57,019 nt of DNA from a virus (Duplodnaviria; Caudoviricetes): positions 1 to 57,019 of the IMG/VR virus record IMGVR_UViG_3300048839_000591, one strand, 5' to 3'. Each line of letters starts with the position of its first letter. The stretch's first letter is position 1. The position numbers and the translations under genes are program-made. The notes under the pieces are model-generated. The model saw only the letters and a program-made list of their open reading frames with translations. It ran no database searches and was not told the origin of the DNA. Positions 142-26,241 of the stretch are shown one piece after another.

Positions 142-2072
142 CGAGCGATGAATTGCTCAACCCCGACGCCGCCGAAGTCGCTCTTCTGGCCGACCTGGTC
201 GAGCGTCGCGTCAAGTTCTTTCGTTAGTTCACTGATATCACGACGGGTCGCTAAGACCGAATCACGCACGCTGTGAAAGACATCATCGACGCCACTGGCG
301 AGCGCTACTGTCGCGTCCATTGCCTCTTGCGCACCGCGATGCCATTGCTCAGAGGCGGCGAAACTCTTATCAAAGGCTTCCTGTGCGGCATCACCGGCTT
401 CGGTCCAGATGTTTTTCGCTTCGCTCAGGCCACCGAAACCTTTTTCTTTCAGTACCCCCAATGCATTGGTAAAGCCTTCGGCCACCAACCACGTCGATTC
501 GATCATGCCCTTGACGAGGAGAAGGCCGGAGACCGCCCCAGCACCAATTGTCTCGAACGCCTTACCAATAGCTAGAACAGCCGTCGCGGTTGCGGCAGAG
601 ACAGCCGCGATCGTCGCCAGTTTGTCAACTGCCCCATCAAGTCCGCCGGTATCAAGATCAAAGATGTCTCGCAGTACCGCTGCGGTTTGTGGTGCTCGGG
701 CGTTGATCTCATCAAGACTCATGCGCAGGGCAACAAATCCGCCAGCGAGTCCTGCCAGAGCCGTGGTTATGCCCGCGATGGCGATAAATCCCGGCCCACC
801 GACGAGACTCACCACGGTTCCGAGCGCCAGCGCAGCCGGGCCAGCCGCTGCGGAGACCGCCGCGATGCCAGCCGCGAACGCCAGCAAGTCCGGCGATGCT
901 GAAGAGACAAATCCAGCGACGTGTTCTACGGCGCCCCCAATGCGTTCGATTCCTTCGGCTATTCCTGGTTGAAAGGCTTGGAAGAGGGTGATCCCGATGT
1001 CACTGACTTCGTTGCGAAGCATTTGGAGTTGACTGGCCGTTGTCTTATACCGTTGCGCCGCCTCATCAACCAGTGCCGTGTTCTCTTCCCAGGCTTGGCT
1101 ACCAAGCTGGATACTTTCCCGTAACAGGTCACCGGCCCCAGACGCTCGGAGCAACGCATCACGGACGCGAATCTCTTGGAAGCCGAGTTCTTCGAGCACC
1201 GCAAAGACGTTGGTGCCCTCGTCGCTAATGCGTCCCAAGCCTTCGACAAACGTGATGACGGCTGATGCGGCATCCTGCTCGAAGAGCCGGGTGAACTCTG
1301 CCACTGAAAGCCCTGCAACTTCGGCCATCATGCCAAGTTCTTCGGTGCCCGATGCAACCGCGTTGGCCATCTCGATCATCACGCGGGATATCGCCGTGCC
1401 ACCGGCTTGCGCTTCGATGCCGACCGACGAGAGCGCCGTGCCGAAGCCCAGGATTTCCGCTTCGGTCAGGCCAATCTGCGCGCCCGCACCAGCGATGCGC
1501 AGCGCCATCTCAACGATTTCGGCCTCTGTGGTTGCGAAGTTATTGCCGAGCGCCACGACTGATGAGCCGAGCCGGTCAAAGTCCGCTTGGTTCATTTGGG
1601 TGATATTGGCGAGTCGTGCGAGGGCCGTGGCTGCCTGGTCGGATGCCAGGTTCGTGCTATTGCCGAGGTCGACCATCACGCGGGTAAACCCGAGAATGGC
1701 ATCGGTCTGGATACCGAGCTGTCCAGCCGCCTCAGCCACCCCAGCGATTTCGGTCGTCGTCGCTGGAATGGACTTGGCCATGTCACGGATGCCGGTCTCA
1801 AGCCGTGCGAAATCGGCTTCGGTTCCGTCAACCGTCTTGCGGACGCCAGCGAAAGCCGACTCGAAGTCGATTCCAATCTTGGCGACGCCGATGGCCATGC
1901 CTGCCAGCGGAACCGTGAGTCCCGCCGTCATAGCGGCACCGGTGCGAGTCATGCCCTGAGCGGCTTTTTGGGCGAAGGAATTGACCGTGCCGGTCATGCC
2001 TTTGAGCGCGGACTCTGCCTCGCTGGTATCGCCGCCCACCCGGACCATCAGTTGTGCGGCTGTGATGGCCAT
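1..2072 (-). CDS. Tail tape measure protein, N-terminal part (TP901-type); continues at 56878 down to 54511, about 1479 aa total
   Basis: Not in the ORF track. ATG at 2072 after AGGAGAGG reads MAITAAQLMVRVGGD...IDFESAFAGVRKTVDG...IAGVAEAAGQLGI...LGSSVVALGNNFATTE; in frame with ORF 54511..57018 via the repeat. Confidence 0.92.
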   Translation of the reverse strand, partial: MAITAAQLMVRVGGDTSEAESALKGMTGTVNSFAQKAAQGMTRTGAAMTAGLTVPLAGMAIGVAKIGIDFESAFAGVRKTVDGTEADFARLETGIRDMAKSIPATTTEIAGVAEAAGQLGIQTDAILGFTRVMVDLGNSTNLASDQAATALARLANITQMNQADFDRLGSSVVALGNNFATTEAEIVEMALRIAGAGAQIGLTEAEILGFGTALSSVGIEAQAGGTAISRVMIEMANAVASGTEELGMMAEVAGLSVAEFTRLFEQDAASAVITFVEGLGRISDEGTNVFAVLEELGFQEIRVRDALLRASGAGDLLRESIQLGSQAWEENTALVDEAAQRYKTTASQLQMLRNEVSDIGITLFQAFQPGIAEGIERIGGAVEHVAGFVSSASPDLLAFAAGIAAVSAAAGPAALALGTVVSLVGGPGFIAIAGITTALAGLAGGFVALRMSLDEINARAPQTAAVLRDIFDLDTGGLDGAVDKLATIAAVSAATATAVLAIGKAFETIGAGAVSGLLLVKGMIESTWLVAEGFTNALGVLKEKGFGGLSEAKNIWTEAGDAAQEAFDKSFAASEQWHRGAQEAMDATVALASGVDDVFHSVRDSVLATRRDISELTKELDATLDQVGQKSDFGGVGVEQFIARMEQGMPAAMAAAGGATKQLKEEVDSLASSLDAVHIINASWNNSVAE

Positions 2073-2084
2073 CCGTTGCCTCTC

Positions 2085-2330
2085 CTAGCGCCGCCGTCCT
2101 CTGGCTTTCGCTTTCGCCTCAGCCTTGCGTCGTTCGCTGCGTTCGTAGGCCGCCTCGGCGCTCATCGACTCACCAGCCCAGGCGCGCCAGACCAGCGGCT
2201 GTTCGGCCAGTTCCCACGGAGGCACCCCCAGGTATTTGGCCTGCTTGATCAGTGCGTACCATTCCGGGCACGTACCGATGCCGCCGTTCGACGCGAGCCA
2301 TTGGCGGAGCTCGCGTCCCTGGCGTTTGGG
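2085..2330 (-). CDS. -1 frameshift extension of the chaperone (gpGT-like)
   Basis: In-frame slippery heptamer C CCA AAC (2330-2324); -1 frame reads KRQGRELRQW...AKYLGVPPWELAEQP...GRRR to TAG at 2085, just upstream of TMP. Confidence 0.8.
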   Translation of the reverse strand, partial: PKRQGRELRQWLASNGGIGTCPEWYALIKQAKYLGVPPWELAEQPLVWRAWAGESMSAEAAYERSERRKAEAKAKARGRRR

Positions 2331-2635
2331 TTCTGGTTGTCTCCAATGGCGCGGGTGATAATCCCCATCACGCCCAGCCCCAGCGCACCGATCGTCTGCG
2401 CATTGACCGGCAGGGGCTTCTCCTTCTCATCCAGCACGTCCCACTGGACAATCAGTTCAGCCAGCAGTTCGGCACTGGCGGCAATCGAACCCTCATCGGT
2501 CTGTGCTTCTTTCAAGCGACGTTCGAGTTCCACCGTGAACTTGTTGGGGTCATAGGTCACGTTCAGCGTGTCCTCGCCAAACGGGATACTGATGCGCTCT
2601 TTGCCCACGACGAGTGCGGCAACCGAAATTGGCAT
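2249..2635 (-). CDS. Tail assembly chaperone (gpG-like), 128 aa
   Basis: Lies between tail tube and TMP genes; start MPISVAAL after a GGGGAG RBS; LIVQWDVLDEKEKPLP motif. Confidence 0.85.
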   Translation of the reverse strand: MPISVAALVVGKERISIPFGEDTLNVTYDPNKFTVELERRLKEAQTDEGSIAASAELLAELIVQWDVLDEKEKPLPVNAQTIGALGLGVMGIITRAIGDNQNPNARDASSANGSRRTAASVRARNGTH

Positions 2636-2657
2636 GCGGGACTCCCCTCTCTGCGGT

Positions 2658-3650
2658 CTAGTAGCCGCTCTGCTCGTTGACCACGCGAATCGAATAGGCT
2701 TTGCCCCAGTCGGCATCCTCGACAATCGCCAGCGACCAGGAGGCGACCGCCAGTTCCTGCACGTCTTCCATGGATGGCGCTTCCGAGACCTGCAACGCCG
2801 CGTCAATGCGCAGCGAGAAGGCACTGCCCCCGACCGTGGTCCCGCCGATGGCTTCAGCCCGCACGAACTTGGTCGCACCGGCGCGCATGGTGTCGAACAT
2901 GCCCATGCCCACGTCATCGGCCCCGAGCTGCAGCGTGGCGTTCACCGCCACCTCTTGTGATTCGATGGTGGTGGCGTAGGAGTCGAGCGCGCTGTTGATC
3001 GGCCAGATGGCCGCATGACGCCCGGAAATGCTGAAGGTGTAGTTGAAGTCACGGGTCAGCTTGGTGGTTCCCAGCGATGCGGAATCGTCATCGAGGTAGA
3101 CATCCCACTGGCTGGGCAGAATCGGCACGAGGTCAAGCAACTCCGGGTTGCTGGTGAGCGCCGTACCGGTGACCAACGCACGGCCCAGCATCGCGCCGGT
3201 GATGCTCGAATCCTCACGCGAGACCGTAATCTCGAAGTCGGTGAAGATACCGCCGGTAAAGAGGTCTGCCCGGTCAGAGTCACCGCGCTGGACGGTGAAC
3301 GTGTTGAAGGTATCAGCGGCGGTGTTGTTGGACTCGAACGTGTAGGCGTAGGCCGTCCCGGCTGCCGTGGTGCCGAACCCAACAGCGGTCCCGGCATTGA
3401 TGATGGACGATAGGGGGTAGATGATTTCGGTATAGGTGGGTTCGCCCTCGACACTCGCTTGCATCCACTCACGATTGAGTGCCGTCAGTGCCGCGTATTT
3501 CTGCCCTGCGGGGCGAAAGGTGTCAATCTCGGCCTGGGGCTCGAACATGATGGACATCGAGCGCAGACGGCGATTCGCCGCCGCTTCCGTGCCCGCAGTT
3601 CCTTCGATTCCGACCTGGGTAACCTGGTATACCGCTGCGTGATCAGCCAT
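2658..3650 (-). CDS. Major tail (tube) protein
   Basis: 330 aa, acidic and beta-rich, QVGIEGTAGT N-terminal motif, AGGAGG RBS, synteny. Confidence 0.8.
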   Translation of the reverse strand: MADHAAVYQVTQVGIEGTAGTEAAANRRLRSMSIMFEPQAEIDTFRPAGQKYAALTALNREWMQASVEGEPTYTEIIYPLSSIINAGTAVGFGTTAAGTAYAYTFESNNTAADTFNTFTVQRGDSDRADLFTGGIFTDFEITVSREDSSITGAMLGRALVTGTALTSNPELLDLVPILPSQWDVYLDDDSASLGTTKLTRDFNYTFSISGRHAAIWPINSALDSYATTIESQEVAVNATLQLGADDVGMGMFDTMRAGATKFVRAEAIGGTTVGGSAFSLRIDAALQVSEAPSMEDVQELAVASWSLAIVEDADWGKAYSIRVVNEQSGY

Positions 3651-3666
3651 GTGATGAGCCTCCTAG

Positions 3667-3778
3667 AAACGAAAACGCCCGCCTCATTGCTGAAGCGGGC
3701 GCTCGCGCGGCGGCTCACCTAGTCATCAGGCGCGGCACGAATCCGTGCGGAGCCTTACTTGCTATTGGCTATATTATA
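3667..3778 (-). promoter_or_regulatory. Promoter (-10 TATAAT) plus structured leader ending in an intrinsic terminator, upstream of the tail tube gene
   Basis: TATAAT at 3778-3773; hairpin CGCCCGC...GCGGGCG followed by TTTTCGTTT just before the RBS. Confidence 0.65.
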
Positions 3779-6708: not shown

Positions 6709-7001
6709 TCAGTTTCGCCTCGATACGCAGCAATCGCTTCTTGAACACGATCTTCGCCACTATCGGCAGAATCCCACCACTCAACGGCATGCCAGATGTT
6801 TCGTAACCGTTCCTGACGTGTTTCAATACGGACCTTGGCTTGACGGATAATCAGGAGCACTTCTTCCGTTTCACGGGCAGCATCTTCGGCATAGCCAAGC
6901 CCAGCTAGGCGCTCAGCCATTTGCTCGATTTCGGCCTCCATAGTGAAGAGGCCCATATCGCAGTCTTTGGCGAACAAATAGTTGTAACTTCCCCCGCTCA
7001 C
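6705..7001 (-). CDS. Hypothetical phage protein (MSGGSYNY family)
   Basis: Coupled start/stop overlaps on both sides; AVEWWDS motif. Confidence 0.7.
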   Translation of the reverse strand: MSGGSYNYLFAKDCDMGLFTMEAEIEQMAERLAGLGYAEDAARETEEVLLIIRQAKVRIETRQERLRNIWHAVEWWDSADSGEDRVQEAIAAYRGETE

Positions 7002-8011
7002 GCTGCCACCTTTCGCGCGGCGACCTGCTTAGCGATCCAGCGGTAGGTCGGCTTGAGTCCATCACGCAGGCTGGTCGTTGGCTCCCAGCCAAGCACCTCA
7101 CGGCAGAGCGAATTGTCGGAGTTGCGCCCACGGACGCCCTGCGGCTTGCTCAGGTCATGGCGAATCTCAATCTCGACCTTGGCCCACGCTGCGACCAATC
7201 GTGTCAGATTGTTGATGGTCGTGAGTTCGTCACTGCCGATGTTCAGCGGTTCAGCATAGTCGGACTGCATCAGGCGATAGATGCCTTCAACGGTGTCATC
7301 AACGTAGGTGAAGGAACGGGTTTGCTCACCGTCGCCCCAGACTTCAATTGAGATGCTATCGGTCGTGAATCCGAACTCAGCCCCGGTCATTGCAATCAGT
7401 TTCGCCGTTGCCACCTTGCGGCAAATAGCCGCTGGGGCCTTCTCACGGCCACCGTCCCAGGTGCCCATCGGGCCGTAACTGTTATGTAAGCGGGCGATGC
7501 GCGTCTCTAGCCCGTACTGTTCGCGGTAGTAGTGGCACGCCCGCTCGTGAATTAGCTTCTGCCAACCATAGGCATCCTCAGCAGGGTCGGCAGGCATCAC
7601 CATATGCTCAGCAAGTGGCGTCACGTCGGGGCGGTCCTGTAGATACTGGGGATAGACCACGGCGCTACTCGTGAACAGGTAGCGCTTGACGGCACAGAGG
7701 CGGGCCGCTTCGAGCATGTTGGAGTTGACCAGCAGGTTGTTGCGCATGATGTCGGCATGATGGCCCTGGTGGATGAATCCAAGTCCGCCCATCTCAGCAG
7801 CCAGGTCGTACACCTCATCGACGCCCTGGCAGACGCGGATGCACGCGCTCATGTGGCGCAAGTCGAGCAAATAGAACGCATCGGCAGCGGTGGCGCCGAA
7901 CTCGGGATACTTCAGGTCGGCCCCGATGACGTGGTAGCCCCGCGCCTTGAGATAGCGCACGAGATGCGAACCGATGAAGCCGCCTGCGCCGGTCACGAGT
8001 GCTGTGGTCAT
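6998..8011 (-). CDS. NAD-dependent epimerase, GDP-mannose 3,5-epimerase-like
   Basis: GAGGFIG, LAAEMGGLGFI, YGWQK (YxxxK), WDGGREKAPAAICRK and GVRGRNSDN motifs typical of the GME subfamily. Confidence 0.88.
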   Translation of the reverse strand: MTTALVTGAGGFIGSHLVRYLKARGYHVIGADLKYPEFGATAADAFYLLDLRHMSACIRVCQGVDEVYDLAAEMGGLGFIHQGHHADIMRNNLLVNSNMLEAARLCAVKRYLFTSSAVVYPQYLQDRPDVTPLAEHMVMPADPAEDAYGWQKLIHERACHYYREQYGLETRIARLHNSYGPMGTWDGGREKAPAAICRKVATAKLIAMTGAEFGFTTDSISIEVWGDGEQTRSFTYVDDTVEGIYRLMQSDYAEPLNIGSDELTTINNLTRLVAAWAKVEIEIRHDLSKPQGVRGRNSDNSLCREVLGWEPTTSLRDGLKPTYRWIAKQVAARKVAA

Positions 8012-8211
8012 TTGCTTCCACCTTGGGTCATGCCGCGAACCGACTCTGCGAGGAACGTGCGAGCGAGTTCGAATGCTTGTGCGTTAGAGAATCCCTGACT
8101 AAGCGCTTGTTGCCGAACCAAGGCAAGCACGCCAATGAAGTTAGCGATGGCTTCTGTCTGCTGGTCACTATTCGCGATACCAAACAGATTCTTCAATTCG
8201 TCGTCTTTCAC
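8008..8211 (-). CDS. Small hypothetical protein
   Basis: 4-nt overlaps with both neighbours. Confidence 0.6.
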   Translation of the reverse strand: MKDDELKNLFGIANSDQQTEAIANFIGVLALVRQQALSQGFSNAQAFELARTFLAESVRGMTQGGSK

Positions 8212-9011
8212 GTCGCCACCCTCTCGATAATCTCCCGGTCTGCCAGCCAGTGGTCGTATTTGTCGATGTTTGCGACCAAGTACGCCGGATGCTGCTCACC
8301 GAACGGCTCATAGACGTAGACGTTATCCGGGTTGCCGCTCGGGTCTTGCCCCGTCCTAATGCACTCGGCGAGATGCGCTTCGTTGGTAATGGCTGGGGTG
8401 TCACACTCGGCATGGCTGAACGATTTGAGCTTGTTGCGGAGACTAGCGACGCCGCCGAAACTTGAGTACGACCAGCCGCCGTCCTGGAAGCACCATTCCC
8501 CCTTCATAACCGATAGCGTGTTACGAAGTGACTGCGGCAAATCAAGGTCGGCATACCGAATCGCTCGCGTGCCAAACCAAGGCCGCGTGTGTCGCCAGTT
8601 GAGGGTCATGCTGTACAACGCCTGCTCATACGCCACACGTTCAAAGTCCGCAAGCAGGAACGGCAGGTGCTTTATCGTTTCAGGATTCGGAATCTCGTCA
8701 ACGTCGCTCACCAGAATCACGTCATCCGGCTCGCAGCCATGCAGCCCGCGCATAATCGCGTTGCGCTGGAAGTGCTCCCGATGCCAGGGGTTATCGGTTG
8801 CTGGCAGGTCACGCACAGCCACATAGTTAATCCGATGGATGAAGGCAGCGAAGCGTTCACAGTTCTCGGAAAAGTAGAGTGGCTTGGGATTGCCCCTGAA
8901 CGTCTCCGTTGCTTCGACGAGTACGAACTGGTCCACCACGTCACCGAGCACGTTCAGCCGCAGTTCGAGCATGTCGAGTTCGGAATCGAACAAAAACGCA
9001 TCGACAATCAC
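8208..9011 (-). CDS. GT17-family glycosyltransferase (MGAT3-like)
   Basis: ELDMLELRL, VLVEA..TF.G.PKP, REHFQRN, SDVDEIP, GGW..S.FGG and KL.SFSH motifs. Confidence 0.88.
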   Translation of the reverse strand: MIVDAFLFDSELDMLELRLNVLGDVVDQFVLVEATETFRGNPKPLYFSENCERFAAFIHRINYVAVRDLPATDNPWHREHFQRNAIMRGLHGCEPDDVILVSDVDEIPNPETIKHLPFLLADFERVAYEQALYSMTLNWRHTRPWFGTRAIRYADLDLPQSLRNTLSVMKGEWCFQDGGWSYSSFGGVASLRNKLKSFSHAECDTPAITNEAHLAECIRTGQDPSGNPDNVYVYEPFGEQHPAYLVANIDKYDHWLADREIIERVAT

Positions 9012-9328
9012 GGCGTTGGCTCCATCAGGTAGGCCACGAGGTCAGGATTGCGCTGTAGGGTGTCCAAGAGCACCGGACCAAGAACCGTCACAAGTTGTTC
9101 TTCACGATTCGCCGGAAGTGGCCTCCCACAGATGTCGATCAATGTGTGCAACACCTCATGAATCAAGACTTCCGCTTGGCGGGATGGAGCACAGTCAGAG
9201 TGAATCGTGATGACATGCTTCTTGTAATTGACATCGCCATAAAACTCGTTCTCATCAAGCCGAACGTTGTCATTCGTCTGAATCTCATAACGAAATGGTC
9301 CAACGGTTACTTGCGTCGGTATTATCAC
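9008..9328 (-). CDS. Small ImmA/IrrE-like HExxH metalloprotein
   Basis: EVLIHEVLH motif with a downstream EE. Confidence 0.7.
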   Translation of the reverse strand: MIIPTQVTVGPFRYEIQTNDNVRLDENEFYGDVNYKKHVITIHSDCAPSRQAEVLIHEVLHTLIDICGRPLPANREEQLVTVLGPVLLDTLQRNPDLVAYLMEPTP

Positions 9329-9876
9329 GGCGCCCGCCATTCCCAAATCGAATCCGCCACCACCGTCGCGTTCGGCAGCACGTCAGACAGCGCTTCCTTG
9401 ACCTGACCAACGCCCCAATCATGGCCGCACATCAGACCACCGGACGCCACTAACGGCAGCCAGTTCGTCACGTCATCACAGACGCTCTGGTAATCGTGGC
9501 TACCATCAATAAAAACAAGGTCGAACGTGCACTCCCGCTCGCGATACCGCTTGGCTGCGTCCAGGCTGGTCATGTTGAGATGCACGCATTTCCCCTTGAC
9601 CAATTCCGGCATCAGGTGCTGCGTAAACAGCTTCTGTAGGTATTCGGGCCTGAGCGGCTGGTCTTGCTCACCACGCCAATCGTCGATGGCGTAGACAATG
9701 CCCGGCGTGGCCATGGCTAATGCTTTGGTACTGCGACCGGCGAAACTGCCCACTTCTACGATGCTGTGATGGTGCTGGGCTTGCTCTGCGAGGTAGCGCA
9801 GCTCGGTCAACGACATCCAGCCAACGATGCGTGCGGCCTGGTCGACAATGGTGTCGATGCTCAAGGTGGTGGTCAT
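9325..9876 (-). CDS. Class I SAM-dependent methyltransferase (Methyltransf_24-like, candidate O-methyltransferase)
   Basis: VEVGSFAGRS, FIDGSHDY and GG...GHD motifs. Confidence 0.85.
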   Translation of the reverse strand: MTTTLSIDTIVDQAARIVGWMSLTELRYLAEQAQHHHSIVEVGSFAGRSTKALAMATPGIVYAIDDWRGEQDQPLRPEYLQKLFTQHLMPELVKGKCVHLNMTSLDAAKRYRERECTFDLVFIDGSHDYQSVCDDVTNWLPLVASGGLMCGHDWGVGQVKEALSDVLPNATVVADSIWEWRAP

Positions 9877-11966
9877 GCCGTCTCCTCTAGCGTCAACTGC
9901 TGCGTCTGCTTGGCCGCTTCACGCTCCCAGTGAGCAATCCGATGGCGGGCAATGGTGACGTACTCCGCTTCGGCATCTATCCCGATGAAGCGGAAGCCCT
10001 GTCGAGCCGCACTACAGCCGGTCGAGCCACTGCCAGCAAAGCAATCGAGCACCAGCCCACCTGGCGGGGTCACTAAGCGCACCAACCAATCACAGAGAGA
10101 GAGCGATTTAACTGTCGGGTGAGAATTGGTCATGCCGTCGGGTAAGCCAAGGTTCCGTTCGCGCCTGCTCGCCTTCGCCTGATAGATTAGGGGCGCGTCG
10201 ATGTCCGGGTGGAACTGGGGGAAGAAGCGGGCAGCCGACCCCGTATCTGGTTGCCGTTCTACGTGAATGCGCCGCTCCAGTTCATTGCCTCGTAAGCCAA
10301 CGTGACGGCCTTTGCCATCCTGCCCAGTGCCGCCACTCTTGCGCTCCCCCGACTGCTCCCCAAGCACCCGGACAGGGCATGACTCGTGGCATCGCCAGGC
10401 GGTCACATGCTCGCCGGCGGTGTAGGACTCAGCGAGGCCGTCTTGGCCCGCATGGCCGTTCGTGCTCAGTCCACCTTTGCCGCGCTTGGCCGGATAATGG
10501 CCGTTGCCCTTGACCCGCGTGGTGCCGAGCGGGACGCAGTGCTCGGTGTGTTGCAGCAAAAGATTACTTGGCCATCTCCCGGTACTTAGAGTGTGGCTTT
10601 GACGGGTCAATGAGGTGAAGTCGTGCGTGATCGCCCCGCCGCATGAGCTGCAAGTTTTCGAGCCGGTTGTCCTGTTTGTCGCCGTTGATATGGTGGAGGA
10701 CGTGTCCGTCAGGGACGGGTCCATGGGCGTCTTCCCATACTCGTCGGTGCTCAAGTTGGTTTTTCCGAATTGGCTTGCGCTTAGTACCGCCTGGCTCGGT
10801 CCACTGGAGCATCCAATAGCCGTTTTGGAGGTATCGGAAAGGCCGTTCTCGTCCGCGCCGTTCATCGTCAGCTCGGCATTGCTTGGAACAGTAGATGCCT
10901 TTGTTGCTGGTGTTGCGGGTCTCTGATTCTTTGCCACAGCCTCGGCACACGAAGCGCAAAGGGATAGCTCTAGTTCCCATGATTGTTCATTCCTTACTCG
11001 CGTGGCTCCGATATTCACTGCTCCAACTGACCAACGGGCGATGTTGTCCACCATGCGCCCCTGTGGCGGCTTCTGTGCCATACAAACGGGTTCAAGGCTT
11101 GGCTTAAGCGACTGACGCCCGTAGAACCAGCCGTCCCAGGCTTTCGCGGCGTCGGTGGCGGGTGCGGTGATGTCGTAGTGTCCTTCAGTATTCGCGCCGA
11201 ATCCCCATTGAGTTGCGAACTCTGGTTTGTTGCTCGGCGTTCGCCATTTGCTATCTAAGACCTCGCGCTCGGCTTCGTCGTAGAGCCGTTCAAAGTCAGG
11301 CGACAAATCCAGTAATGAGCGGACCTGATCCCAATGCTGGCGCGGTGGCATCCCGCCTCGATGATCGGTGCGTGCCCAGTAGCACGACGACGACTTGATA
11401 CCGAGCACGCGATCAATATCGCTATGGCTGTACATTGAAGACTTGACCGCCTGCGCATACGCACGGGAAAAGGACTGCCAGGCCACCGGGTTACCCCCGG
11501 CCTTGTCCAGTTGCTTAGACAAATTAGTAGCCTTCGGGAACCCACTTCCGTAACACCACCCAATGAGCGGATGCAGGATGAACCCCGCGTCCTCGATGGC
11601 AACCGCCATGCGGTGATACGTCCGGCTGCCTCCGAATGCCAGCAGATAGCCCCCTGGCTTCAAGACGCGATAGACGGCCTGCCAGGTTTCGACGTTGAAC
11701 GCGACGCCGGTTGCGTCCCATTGCTTGCCCATAAAACCTTTGCCGTGGCTGCGTTGGTTGTAGAGTTCGCCGCCGCACTTCGGGCAGGCATTCGGGTTGC
11801 CGTCACGTCCACCGAGCACCCGGCCACAATCGCGGCACTTCTTGACATCGGGTACACGGTTGGTCAGGTCATATGGCGGGTCACAGACCACGGCGTCGAT
11901 GCTGTTCGGCTCCATGCCGCGCATCACGTCCAGCGCGTCGCCGTGGATGACCTGCCAGTCGCTCAC
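9873..11966 (-). CDS. Beta-class N4-C/N6-A DNA methyltransferase with large insertions
   Basis: DPPY precedes HPTVK and DCFAGSGSTG; GRWPSN; GTG start overlaps the GT4 stop. Confidence 0.88.
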   Translation of the reverse strand: MSDWQVIHGDALDVMRGMEPNSIDAVVCDPPYDLTNRVPDVKKCRDCGRVLGGRDGNPNACPKCGGELYNQRSHGKGFMGKQWDATGVAFNVETWQAVYRVLKPGGYLLAFGGSRTYHRMAVAIEDAGFILHPLIGWCYGSGFPKATNLSKQLDKAGGNPVAWQSFSRAYAQAVKSSMYSHSDIDRVLGIKSSSCYWARTDHRGGMPPRQHWDQVRSLLDLSPDFERLYDEAEREVLDSKWRTPSNKPEFATQWGFGANTEGHYDITAPATDAAKAWDGWFYGRQSLKPSLEPVCMAQKPPQGRMVDNIARWSVGAVNIGATRVRNEQSWELELSLCASCAEAVAKNQRPATPATKASTVPSNAELTMNGADENGLSDTSKTAIGCSSGPSQAVLSASQFGKTNLSTDEYGKTPMDPSLTDTSSTISTATNRTTGSKTCSSCGGAITHDFTSLTRQSHTLSTGRWPSNLLLQHTEHCVPLGTTRVKGNGHYPAKRGKGGLSTNGHAGQDGLAESYTAGEHVTAWRCHESCPVRVLGEQSGERKSGGTGQDGKGRHVGLRGNELERRIHVERQPDTGSAARFFPQFHPDIDAPLIYQAKASRRERNLGLPDGMTNSHPTVKSLSLCDWLVRLVTPPGGLVLDCFAGSGSTGCSAARQGFRFIGIDAEAEYVTIARHRIAHWEREAAKQTQQLTLEETA
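10564..10980 (-). CDS. HNH endonuclease nested in an alternate frame of the DNA methyltransferase
   Basis: CRGC..YCSKQC zinc finger, EHRRVW, HHINGDKQDNRLENL and H motifs; upstream AAGGA. Confidence 0.85.
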   Translation of the reverse strand: MGTRAIPLRFVCRGCGKESETRNTSNKGIYCSKQCRADDERRGRERPFRYLQNGYWMLQWTEPGGTKRKPIRKNQLEHRRVWEDAHGPVPDGHVLHHINGDKQDNRLENLQLMRRGDHARLHLIDPSKPHSKYREMAK

Positions 11967-13152
11967 GCCGCACGCTCCGTGGCATCCCCGAATATGCGCT
12001 CTTGAATGCTCGCCAGTACAGGCCGCCAATAGACATCAGTCACCAGGTCGGCATCGTATTCGAGCGCCCCTTGTCGGGCAGCCTGACGCATCAGCGCGGG
12101 ATTCGTGACCGCGTAGGCCGCTTCCAGTTGCTCGTAGATGGCCTCTGGCCTCGGGATGAACTGAAACGTATTCAGCCCGTTCCACCACGGTATCGTGTCG
12201 GTCTTGTCCACCTTCCAACCGCTGAAGCACAACTCGCTCATGGCCGTCCAGTCACCAACCAGCACCGGGCAGCCAGCGGCTTGCGCCTCCAGGATGCCGA
12301 TACCAAACCCTTCACCTTTGGCCACGTTCATGTAGAGGTCCGCCGCGTTATAGACCGCATTCATGTAGACATCACTGAAGCCAATCAGCATCGTGTACTG
12401 GTCGGCAAAGACGACATCGGGACCGATGCGTAAGCCCAGATGCTCGCAGAGGGCCAGCAGGTTCTCGCCGCCGAGTTCACCGCGTGCGCCGGTCGTGGTG
12501 TGCAAATAGAGCAGCGCGTCCGGGTGTTTGGTCTTCAGCATCTTGAAGGCAATGAGCTGTTCCACGAAGGCTTTACGGCTCGGGTTGCCCTTGTTGGCGG
12601 CGACCATGGCGACGATGTAGGCATCTTTCGGCAGGTTCAGTGCTTCACGGGCTGAGGCGCGGTCAGCCGGGTGAAAGACGGTCGTGTCGGTGCCATGGGG
12701 AACGTACATCGTTTCGATGCCCGCCTCGTGACACACCCGTTCACCGAAGCGACTGAACACAATCGGCTGGAATGACTGGTTGACCACCTGAGCAATGCCT
12801 TGAGGTAACGGCTCAGAATCGACCGGGAACCAAGGCACGTGGCGCACGCCATGGCCGTAGAACTGCGGCTGGCAGACCCAGGCGTCCATCAGCGTCAACG
12901 CGATGTGCGCCCCTTGGTGAGCAGCGTGGGCCGTGACCACATCTTGACTGTATGCCTGATGCCCGGACGGATAGACCTTGATGCCGTGCCACTCGATGAC
13001 GGCGCTATTCAGCCCCCAGAACGCGCTAATGGCAATCGGGTAACCGAGCAAATCCTTGATGCGTGGCACGAAGAGCTTGGTCTGATTCGCATAGCCGGTG
13101 TTCAATTAGTCCATGGCGCGTTGGAAAACCAACTAATCGTCATAGACTGCAT
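11963..13152 (-). CDS. GT4 (GT-B) glycosyltransferase; first 16 codons (13152-13105) separated from the body by TGA and a frame change
   Basis: WFSNAPW / TGYANQT N-terminal motif; VPHG.D, RK and GEGFGIGILEAQAAG motifs. Confidence 0.85.
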
Positions 13153-25376: not shown

Positions 25377-25753
25377 GCCGCTCTTCCTTCCACCAGCCGC
25401 ATCACAGCCCGTATCGCATCCTTGACCGCATCCGGCGTCCGCTCATCACGCCACACCATCACCACACGCAGCAGCTCAGTATCGTCGCCAATCGAGAGCC
25501 CCAGCGGGTCAAGTGGCGGGTAGCCAGCGGCCAGCAGCAGCCGGTCCCGTTCCTGGCTGGTGAGTCCCAGCGCATGGGCCAGTTGCAGCACCCGTTCGAC
25601 TCTCGGCCTCTTGCGGCCGTGCTCGTACTTGCTGATTTCGCCGTGGTCCTCGCGGTAGCCGGTGGTCCGTTCGGCAACGTCGAGCTGCGACAGGCCGCGT
25701 TCGGTACGCAGCAGCCGTAGGTGCGCGCCGAAGGTGTGGGGTTGGGCGCTCAT
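25373..25753 (-). CDS. XRE-family HTH regulator
   Basis: FGAHLR.LR..RGLSQ.DVA, ISKYEHG..RP, LL.AAGY. Confidence 0.85.
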   Translation of the reverse strand: MSAQPHTFGAHLRLLRTERGLSQLDVAERTTGYREDHGEISKYEHGRKRPRVERVLQLAHALGLTSQERDRLLLAAGYPPLDPLGLSIGDDTELLRVVMVWRDERTPDAVKDAIRAVMRLVEGRAA

Positions 25754-26241
25754 GCCACGGCCTCCCAGAGTGTCTTTTGTCCGGTCGGATGCTGGTCAAT
25801 CCGTGGTCGTGAGGGACAATCCCAAGTCCCGCCAGCCGTCTGATAGAGCGCTTTCCAGCCCGCAGCTACCAGGCTGATTCCCGGCTCTTCGGCCAAGGTG
25901 TAGGTCACGAGCCGCCGATAGCCAAGCGCTTTGGTTGCACGCCAGGCGGAGCCATAGAGCATCGACGCGGCGTTCTTCGTCCCGTCAGTACAGCAGCGGG
26001 TTACTTCGAGCGTCCAGCCGTTATCGAGTCCACGCGCCACCGGACGCCCAACCGTCACGACACCGACGATGCGGTCACCATCGTTGACCGCAATCCCGAA
26101 TTTCCAACCGACGGGTGGCAGGTGATGGCGGTGATGCTGCCGGATGAACGCACACGCTTCGGCGTAGGTGATGGGCTGCAAGTGCAAGCTCACAGTTCCC
26201 GCTCCCCGCGTCGTGGCCGTGCCCGCGTTCGTGCCGGTCAT
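25750..26241 (-). CDS. XF1762-family / Mom-like GNAT protein (candidate DNA modification)
   Basis: AFI..HHRH, VGRPVAR.LD, LEVTRCCTDG..NA.SMLY, GYRRLVTYTL. Confidence 0.8.
   Translation of the reverse strand: MTGTNAGTATTRGAGTVSLHLQPITYAEACAFIRQHHRHHLPPVGWKFGIAVNDGDRIVGVVTVGRPVARGLDNGWTLEVTRCCTDGTKNAASMLYGSAWRATKALGYRRLVTYTLAEEPGISLVAAGWKALYQTAGGTWDCPSRPRIDQHPTGQKTLWEAVA

Follow-up and report, generated by a model that had tools for sequence, protein, structure and literature searches.

Introduction

Homing endonuclease genes had been believed to persist inside essential or useful genes only by means of self-splicing introns or inteins. I-HmuI resides in a self-splicing group I intron, and free-standing homing endonucleases split or flank their host genes, examples being T4 mobE and the split nrdA of Aeh1. 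A nuclease gene tolerated just by an open second reading frame would constitute a third route. In the present work we analysed a candidate for it in the IMG/VR virus record IMGVR_UViG_3300048839_000591 (Duplodnaviria; Caudoviricetes; the whole stretch of 57,019 nucleotides is referred to as the window), where an HNH endonuclease gene is nested out of frame in a DNA methyltransferase gene, called the methylase in the following. A design of this kind was described as the ShiLan domain, an out-of-frame HNH hidden in mycobacteriophage DNA methylases (Arsenault, Gosselin, Gogarten 2025, Genes 16:178, PMC11855218).

According to its published description, the ShiLan insertion adds 202 residues to the methylase and is stop-free in the host frame. 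The HNH gene (195 aa) lies in frame 3, starts with GTG and ends with a TAA within the final 4 nt of the insertion; leaderless initiation was proposed for it. The authors, who used RNAweasel, reported no intron or intein signatures, predicted a loop clear of the methylase core and stated that the host methylase is not essential in mycobacteriophages (PMC11855218). The distribution was described as patchy, both there and by Gosselin et al. 2023 (PMC9957025). Section 3.6 of PMC11855218 further mentions an insertion with a hidden HNH-like open reading frame (ORF) in the methylase Pacc40 gp60, and a preprint describes inteins that carry an out-of-frame homing endonuclease, endonuclease VII-like and in frame 3 (bioRxiv 10.1101/2025.01.02.630785). 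In the portions of the literature covered, only these two reports matched the design.

Results

Anatomy of the nested gene and its host

The host gene was assigned to the beta class of N6/N4 DNA methyltransferases from its Pfam profile (N6_N4_Mtase, PF01555, E 1.7e-25), the position of motif IV DPPY (11871-11882) ahead of the FxGxG motif I (FAGSGST, 10020-10040), both of them intact, and the CcrM/RsrI-like fold of its AlphaFold2 (AF2) model, the activity being predicted only. CcrM (6pbd, E 1.5e-7), M.BceJIV and M.RsrI were the best matches of this model in the Protein Data Bank (PDB), and its core showed a predicted local distance difference test score (pLDDT) >90 around a low-confidence loop. 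The longest ORF listed, 9873..12029 on the minus strand, starts from a TTG at 12029 and encodes 718 aa. The probable start is the GTG at 11966, giving 697 aa. This GTG shares bases with the TGA of the glycosyltransferase gene upstream; through this GTGA overlap the methylase start appears translationally coupled to that gene.

An earlier first-pass annotation of the window, made from the letters alone, had noticed a complete zinc-finger plus HNH gene on the same strand in another frame, between the methylase motifs NIGATRV and GRWPSN. The ORF listing and Pfam bore this out: the nested ORF matched HNH_3 (PF13392, E 1.4e-16, 60.3 bits for a gathering cut-off of 24.8). The AF2 model of its product was confident (mean pLDDT 86.9), with I-HmuI as top PDB match (1u3e, prob 1.00, E 0.018, TMq 0.48), a weak match by its E-value. 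In an alignment of 20 HNH sequences, residues H96, H97, N99, D104, N105, N109 and H118 were invariant, and the catalytic His and Asn residues together with the four zinc-finger Cys were invariant or nearly so.

The two genes are interlocked at both ends (Table 1). The last base of NIGATRV is at 10995 and the first of GRWPSN at 10580. The HNH ATG lies within TCA-TGG of the methylase frame, hence the methylase frame is the +1 frame of the HNH gene or, seen from the host, the HNH gene is in frame 3. The HNH ORF fills the insert, with about 14 nt to spare at the 5' side and none at the 3' side, where the TAA is made of the T of AGT (Ser) and the AA of AAT (Asn) in GRWPSN, an overlap with the PSN codons that the first-pass annotation had described correctly. 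Because the GRWPSN codons also encode the HNH C-terminus, relatives that share the site have HNH proteins with ..KMAQ, ..QMAE or ..KMAS as their last residues. The TGA three codons upstream of the ATG rules out, as read from the sequence, that the HNH gene is a simple in-frame continuation from upstream; in most of the related loci this frame becomes open 0-12 codons ahead of the ATG.

In the methylase frame the insert contains no stop codon, and the frame is uninterrupted over all 697 codons, again as first noticed. The description of the insert as Ser/Thr-rich filler was likewise borne out, Ser and Thr making up 32.6% of it vs 11.4% of the rest of the protein. It is predicted to be mostly disordered (pLDDT about 30 over residues 351-430 of the 697-aa model), two short segments being the only parts of the loop with raised pLDDT.

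Table 1. Features of the nested locus and neighbouring genes, with positions in the window
Feature	Position	Strand	Basis or remark
Beta-class N6/N4 DNA methyltransferase (host gene)	9873..11966	minus	ORF listing, Pfam, motifs, AF2 model
Nested HNH_3 endonuclease gene, 138 codons + TAA, ATG start	10564..10980	minus	ORF listing, Pfam
Cys4-type N-terminal zinc finger of the HNH protein (C12, C15, C31, C35)	10876-10947	minus	alignment
HNH core (H96, H97, N109, H118, H122)	10615-10695	minus	alignment
Insert read in the methylase frame, 138 codons/414 bases between NIGATRV and GRWPSN	10581..10994	minus	
Shine-Dalgarno-like AAGGA, ends 10 nt ahead of the HNH ATG; falls within the methylase-frame codons for V-R-N	10991..10995	minus	
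TGA closing the HNH frame, three codons ahead of the HNH ATG	10987..10989	minus	
Conserved methylase motif GRWPSN, also coding the HNH C-terminus ..EMAK + TAA (10564-10566)	10563..10580	minus	
Methylase-frame C358-x2-C361 (LCASC), first half of candidate zinc clasp	10947..10958	minus	pLDDT 61
Fifth conserved methylase-frame Cys, C407	10809-10811	minus	
Methylase-frame C460-x2-C463 (TCSSC), second half of candidate zinc clasp	10641..10652	minus	pLDDT 57-64
Nucleotide-sugar epimerase	6998-8011	minus	neighbour of methylase
Second SAM methyltransferase-like gene	9325-9876	minus	neighbour of methylase
Glycosyltransferase	11963-13105	minus	upstream gene of methylase
Mom-like DNA-modification gene	25750-26241	minus	elsewhere in window

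The open host frame in relatives of the element

Searches of viral and metagenome contigs with the HNH protein yielded 19 distinct complete close loci, giving a set of 20 with the window. Identity of the window HNH to these relatives was 32-69% in the 20-sequence alignment; for the best match, L058, 75% was given. All 20 HNH genes sit inside N6_N4 methylase ORFs and all in the same phase, the host frame being the +1 frame of the HNH gene. This frame contained no stop in any of the 20, and the +2 frame contained 1-18. Two partial copies (L067, L081) were also open up to the contig ends. The first-pass annotation would have been contradicted by homologous insertions with stops in the methylase frame; not one of the 20 has any.

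We then calculated the probability of an open frame when HNH codons are redrawn from the codon usage of the methylase itself, using an exact dynamic-programming calculation. For the AT-rich relatives (34-41% GC), 3.6-4.8 stops would be expected from host codon usage, and the probability of an open frame was 0.0017-0.0076 for L074-L076; it was 0.006 for L007. The value of 0.0 for L058 is unreliable since only 87 flank codons were available, and the value for L063 comes from 72. Of 49 more distant HNH_3 loci, 15 had no stop in the +1 frame, and the other 34 had 0.5-12.9 stops per 100 codons. Fourteen of the open ones lie in long host ORFs (13 methylases and one terminase intein), and the fifteenth, L051, spans 38 codons only. 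The distribution of +1 stops among HNH_3 loci is therefore bimodal, nested vs free-standing. Taken together, the comparative data, AT-rich members included, are decisive: as judged from these sequences, chance is untenable as an explanation for the open host frame. The phase common to all relatives is also the one in which stops are easiest to avoid.

The terminase case, locus L032, has an HNH_3 gene (E 4.3e-18; 2782-3597) in the same +1 phase inside a terminase ORF (1223-3736, Terminase_6N). The region hosting this HNH gene looks like an intein of the terminase large subunit (TerL), beginning with C-VVDGTQI and ending with YYANGILSRN before the next C.

Signals for separate expression of the nuclease

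The window carries a Shine-Dalgarno (SD)-type signal upstream of the HNH ATG. Similar signals were present in relatives, AAGGAG in L006, L059, L060 and L063 and AAAGGAGG in L076. At six other loci (L003, L058, L061, L065, L073, L075) we found, 6-20 nt upstream of the HNH ATG, -10-like hexamers (TACAAT, TATAAT, TATACT, TATTAT) that end 6-8 nt before it. The hexamers lie at several of these loci in a conserved GGCCAACGGCCTA-like stretch, read as (T/A)GQ(R/L)P in the methylase frame and lacking in the window. This GGCCAACGGCCTA-like stretch with its hexamer may serve as a promoter, carried by the element itself, from which a leaderless HNH mRNA is made.

Splicing signatures

No intron family was found in an Rfam covariance scan of 9800-12100 at E up to 10; the scan returned three sub-threshold small or long non-coding RNA rows only, which we took as chance. 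Pfam detected no Hint/intein domain. The insert reads RNEQ at its beginning and ..LST at its end, with Gly following in the host where an intein would need Cys, Ser or Thr. We rejected an intein given the missing Hint domain and the wrong boundary residues, and a group I or group II intron given the lack of an Rfam match and the only ~14 nt of insert outside the HNH ORF. A sequencing or assembly frameshift of an in-frame HNH domain was rejected as well, since the same phase, the own ATG and the upstream stop in the HNH frame recur in independent contigs. The absence of intein ends and intron-like flanks noted in the first pass thus held up to the Rfam scan, the Pfam search and the inspection of boundary residues, and the insert appears not to be removed by splicing, as far as the sequence tells.

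Inteins do occur elsewhere in this methylase family. The insert-free homologue P0001 carries a textbook intein at another site (CLSDD...VTGN, between G and SGFPK), and locus L030 (959-3613) has an intein at the same GSGFPK site plus a nested HNH near the C-terminus. One methylase family would hence host inteins and out-of-frame HNH cassettes side by side.

Insert-free alleles, insertion sites and mobility

Alignment to insertion-free methylases, the first check proposed in the first-pass annotation, confirmed an insertion. P0001, the nearest methylase relative and 82% identical to the window methylase in the best local alignment, has a loop of 32 residues at the site, and other homologues have 6-50 residues vs 138 in the window. 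Among 22 methylase loci in viral contigs, no insert-free DNA allele exceeded 52% identity, and a scan of genome contigs with the HNH alignment gave 20 pattern matches, none of which was confirmed. A methylase search found a nested HNH in only two of 20 relatives; the methylase of Klebsiella phage VLCpiS10a contained no nested ORF of at least 80 aa. The HNH_3 gene has free-standing relatives. The term 'overprinted' of the first-pass annotation is thus misleading, the HNH being an inserted pre-existing gene. It is the methylase-frame reading of the insert that would be the secondary product.

In eight of eight close cassette pairs, differences piled up at HNH codon position 3 (e.g. 12/3/34, 12/3/21 and 4/2/14 for the three positions), which is the second position of the methylase-frame codon. 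This excess indicates that the HNH frame is under purifying selection at the protein level and that the methylase-frame reading diverges faster. Indeed, in the close pairs the methylase-frame reading of the insert was 75-90% identical vs 90-95% for the HNH protein. The flanks of the host methylases were only 57-84% identical in these pairs; the HNH is thus better conserved than its hosts, which fits a mobile element.

Related cassettes use at least four insertion sites in this methylase family. The window's site, between NIGATRV and GRWPSN, is occupied in L002, L003, L007, L058-L061, L065, L068-L072, L074 and L075. A site after GRWPAN is used in L006, L063, L073 and L076/L077, and one between AKASxxER and HPTVKP by a second HNH subfamily with 12 loci. 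The ShiLan site is occupied in Pollywog, L044 and probably L084 and L103. L084 (2145-2762) and L103 (1899-2513), both uncultivated viral contigs and the two nested cases from the methylase search, have ShiLan-like HNH genes of 205-206 aa with zinc fingers on both sides and in the same phase. L059 (3-1517) and L067 (2-1246) show two stop-free inserts each. The first lies at the window's site, the second between AKASxxER and H(S/P)TVKP, a pattern that suggests two nested cassettes per methylase. In the AT-rich methylases L075 (1663-3810), L076 (639-3050) and L077 (1505-3928), a further large insert lies at the ShiLan site, flanked by ..LKPxxE..KP and a repeated ..EPI(L/T)VA(R/M)KP.

Two loci show altered host genes. 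L063 (2828-3430, the same as L064 96-698) is a remnant of 201 codons in which the methylase N-terminus is joined straight to the cassette region, the core being deleted and the cassette intact. In L006 (2270-3799), with the cassette at the post-GRWPAN site, the methylase frame after HHPTVKP is unrelated where LMRWLxRLVTPPGG would be expected; this host gene looks frameshifted, be it real or a sequencing error.

Conserved cysteines in the methylase-frame reading

For 11 diverged members of the window's clade, two of them at a different methylase site, we compared how the insert reads in the methylase frame. Five Cys residues of this reading, arranged as C-x2-C ... C ... C-x2-C, were invariant in 11/11. 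At 15 invariant HNH residues of at least four-fold degeneracy, the third base was invariant in only three, and these are exactly three of the codons that form a Cys in the other frame (Leu xTG, Val GTG and Leu xTG). In the Leu codons the first base, where a change is synonymous, differs between members (TTG or CTG). The second C-x2-C pair also keeps its other Cys while the overlapping HNH residue varies between Met, Leu and Val, always xTG, and the HNH residue following it varies between Arg and Leu. Avoidance of stops does not account for this conservation, as other codon choices would encode Ser, Phe or Tyr. Values of pLDDT were 57-64 in the two CxxC segments vs about 30 in the loop. The pattern was not found in the L007/L069-L072 clade and in the AT-rich clade.

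Five methylase-frame Cys are thus conserved beyond the needs of the HNH frame, possibly a new point. Whether the methylase-frame reading encodes a Cys4 zinc clasp that would pin the ends of the loop together, with both frames under selection, is a tentative proposal that we put forward with more doubt than conviction. If it were true, the selfish nuclease gene would carry its own protein-level substitute for splicing, and it would offer one of the rare examples of a mobile element selected in both frames.

Genomic context

GC content around the locus is 55-57%. The gene content of the window comprises an integrase, a repressor, TerL, a major head protein and a tape-measure protein, and the window looks like a temperate tailed phage. 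TerL had its best isolate matches in psiM2, psiM100 and Gordonia and Brevibacterium phages at 34-39% identity; no close isolate relative was found. Given the block from 6998 to 13105 and the Mom-like gene (Table 1), the phage seems heavily invested in DNA modification. Right after DPPY, the window methylase has a zinc-ribbon-like insertion, CRDCG...CPKCG (11772-11837, minus strand), common to P0001, P0004 and L066, whereas most homologues are without it.

Discussion

We consider it likely that the nested gene is a selfish homing-type HNH_3 cassette, seated unspliced in a variable surface loop of an orphan beta-class phage DNA methyltransferase and tolerated by virtue of an open second frame. 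Since the +1 frame is kept free of stops, ribosomes on the methylase message would read straight through the cassette and produce a methylase with a largely disordered, Ser/Thr-rich loop of about 138 residues, which would retain its activity despite the loop. The HNH protein would be made separately from the same mRNA, starting at its own ATG behind the internal SD-like site, with the GRWPSN codons of the host providing its last codons and its stop. Insert-free methylase alleles, met during co-infection or in prophages, are presumably what the nuclease cuts, and the cassette would then be copied in by repair. This is the first of two readings that the first-pass annotation had offered, a homing endonuclease made harmless by dual coding rather than by splicing, and the geometry of the relatives, the empty allele P0001 and the selection on the HNH frame argue for it.

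Several observations weigh against this interpretation. For the window alone, evidence for a maintained open frame is modest: among the 138-codon windows of the +1 frame in the 39 other ORFs of the window, 155 of 8591 (1.8%) were stop-free (P 0.018), and the codon-usage calculation gave 0.069. The synonymous shuffling that the first-pass annotation had proposed left the frame open with a probability of 0.58, which shows that freedom from +1 stops is built into the residues and codon choice of the element and not into the order of its codons. The host frame is, moreover, still open in the truncated remnant L063/L064 and in the frameshift-like L006, so that an open frame alone is no proof of a working host protein. 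In the window methylase, two prolines that are nearly invariant among homologues are replaced (HPTVKS vs HPTVKP, LDCF vs LDPF) and, given these losses, the protein may be under relaxed selection. A search around the HNH start in the window found no sigma-70-like promoter, and the spacing of 10 nt between the SD-like site and the ATG is on the long side.

The replaced prolines, the remnant and frameshift-like hosts and the 58% of shuffles in which the gene's own codon set stays open could all be read differently, namely that the methylase is already non-functional or dispensable in this phage and that the open frame was merely inherited with the element rather than maintained here by selection. 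The statement in PMC11855218 that the methylase is non-essential in mycobacteriophages points the same way. The intact DPPY and FxGSG motifs, the ORF uninterrupted over 697 codons, the core pLDDT above 90 and the GTGA coupling to the upstream gene argue against it, and we regard this explanation as rather unlikely, though it is the most serious of the rivals. Pure chance, a free-standing HNH gene that landed in the methylase where the alternate frame of a GC-rich genome happened to be open, might draw on the 55-57% GC, on the long alternate-frame ORFs common in the window and on the 1.8% of comparable windows that are open. It is, however, at odds with 20 of 20 relatives open in one phase, among them loci of 34-41% GC with probabilities of 0.002-0.008 each, and with the bimodal split between nested and free-standing HNH_3 genes, which leaves it next to no credit.

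Alternatively, an intron that went unrecognised, an intein of unorthodox type or ribosomal bypassing might take the insert out, which would make the open frame irrelevant. Nothing positive speaks for this; the one reservation is that group I introns are variable in sequence and divergent ones can escape covariance models. With no Rfam intron match at E up to 10, an HNH ORF that runs almost end to end and so leaves no room for a ribozyme core, no Hint domain, and an insert that begins with Arg and is followed by Gly, we hold removal to be very improbable; splicing would also leave no reason for the open host frame of 20/20 relatives, and the ShiLan authors, in the published description, came to the same conclusion with RNAweasel (PMC11855218). 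The second reading of the first-pass annotation, a compact nested nuclease-methylase unit, would see in the HNH a domesticated companion of the methylase, perhaps with a restriction-like or anti-competitor role, that is sure to be inherited with the protecting methylase by being nested in it. Both are indeed physically inseparable, phage HNH proteins have non-homing roles, and the window has other DNA-modification genes (Mom-like, second methyltransferase, glycosyltransferase). A fixed partner would fit poorly, however, with a cassette that is patchy among close methylases and missing in P0001, that was nested in only two of 20 relatives from the methylase search, that occupies at least four sites in one family and appears to sit twice in some methylases, that is more conserved than its host and that has one copy inside a terminase intein. 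We therefore found no support for such a unit and judge it improbable, if somewhat less so than removal of the insert.

If a selfish cassette read through in its second frame is the correct interpretation, the design would be invisible to gene callers and to the expectation of one frame per gene: the window methylase would be annotated as a single protein of 718 aa, and the nuclease would be missed. The design is confined neither to mycobacteriophages nor to one site, being found in GC-rich and AT-rich uncultivated phages and in one terminase intein, and it can apparently be driven by an ordinary Shine-Dalgarno start.

Comparison with known systems

The element shares with free-standing homing endonucleases that it is a selfish nuclease without intron or intein, tied to a conserved host gene. 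Those nucleases, however, are encoded intergenically or split the host gene into two ORFs, whereas the host ORF of the window is whole. I-HmuI is the best structural match of the nested protein, and both are of the HNH_3 type, but no intron was found at the locus of the window. The inteins of the preprint (bioRxiv 10.1101/2025.01.02.630785), by their description, likewise have a frame-3 nuclease gene in an insertion that is open in the host frame, and L032 has the same phase; in those cases the intein splices the insert out of the protein, whereas the window insert has no Hint domain. Pacc40 gp60 resembles the window in its out-of-frame nuclease ORF, located in a methylase insertion that is read through in the host frame, and differs, going by its description in PMC11855218, in its host, a helicase-methylase fusion, and in its AP2/PacI-like nuclease.

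The closest likeness is with ShiLan, the arrangement of which we confirmed in Pollywog gp67, a tblastn match of the window methylase, in the same phase and at a different site. The hosts belong to the same methylase family, the window methylase being 40-41% identical to those of Quico, Florinda and Pollywog. Homology extends to the HNH proteins, which share 35% identity over 130 residues with the N-terminal zinc finger included. As far as the description of ShiLan goes, both have I-HmuI as top PDB match, and both systems have the HNH in frame 3, a stop-free host frame, no intron or intein signatures, a predicted disordered loop and a patchy distribution. Like ShiLan, the window thus has an insertion relative to insert-free homologues, an open host frame, a complete frame-3 HNH ORF and no splicing features; a disjunct distribution and an element less diverged than its hosts were seen through other close pairs and the empty allele P0001. 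For the window itself, the best insert-bearing locus, L058, reached only 75% identity in the HNH.

The differences concern the element itself. Its site is between NIGATRV and GRWPSN, that in Pollywog between ALKPxxEP..KP and a repeated ..EPIVVARKP, and the HNH, only 35% identical, is not an orthologue of that of ShiLan. The window HNH has 138 aa and one zinc finger, lacking the C-terminal one, vs 195 aa and two in the published ShiLan protein; it starts with ATG behind an SD-like AAGGA vs GTG with proposed leaderless initiation, and its stop comes from codons of a host motif vs a TAA within the insert's final 4 nt. The native loop of the window methylase appears to have been replaced, and no flanking duplication is present. 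Its phage is uncultivated and without a close isolate relative (TerL <=39%). The design as such was already published in 2025, and the survey in that paper may already list similar elements (PMC11855218). The window adds a new lineage and a new site and, from the sequences compared, we regard its cassette as an element of the same kind as ShiLan and not as the same element.

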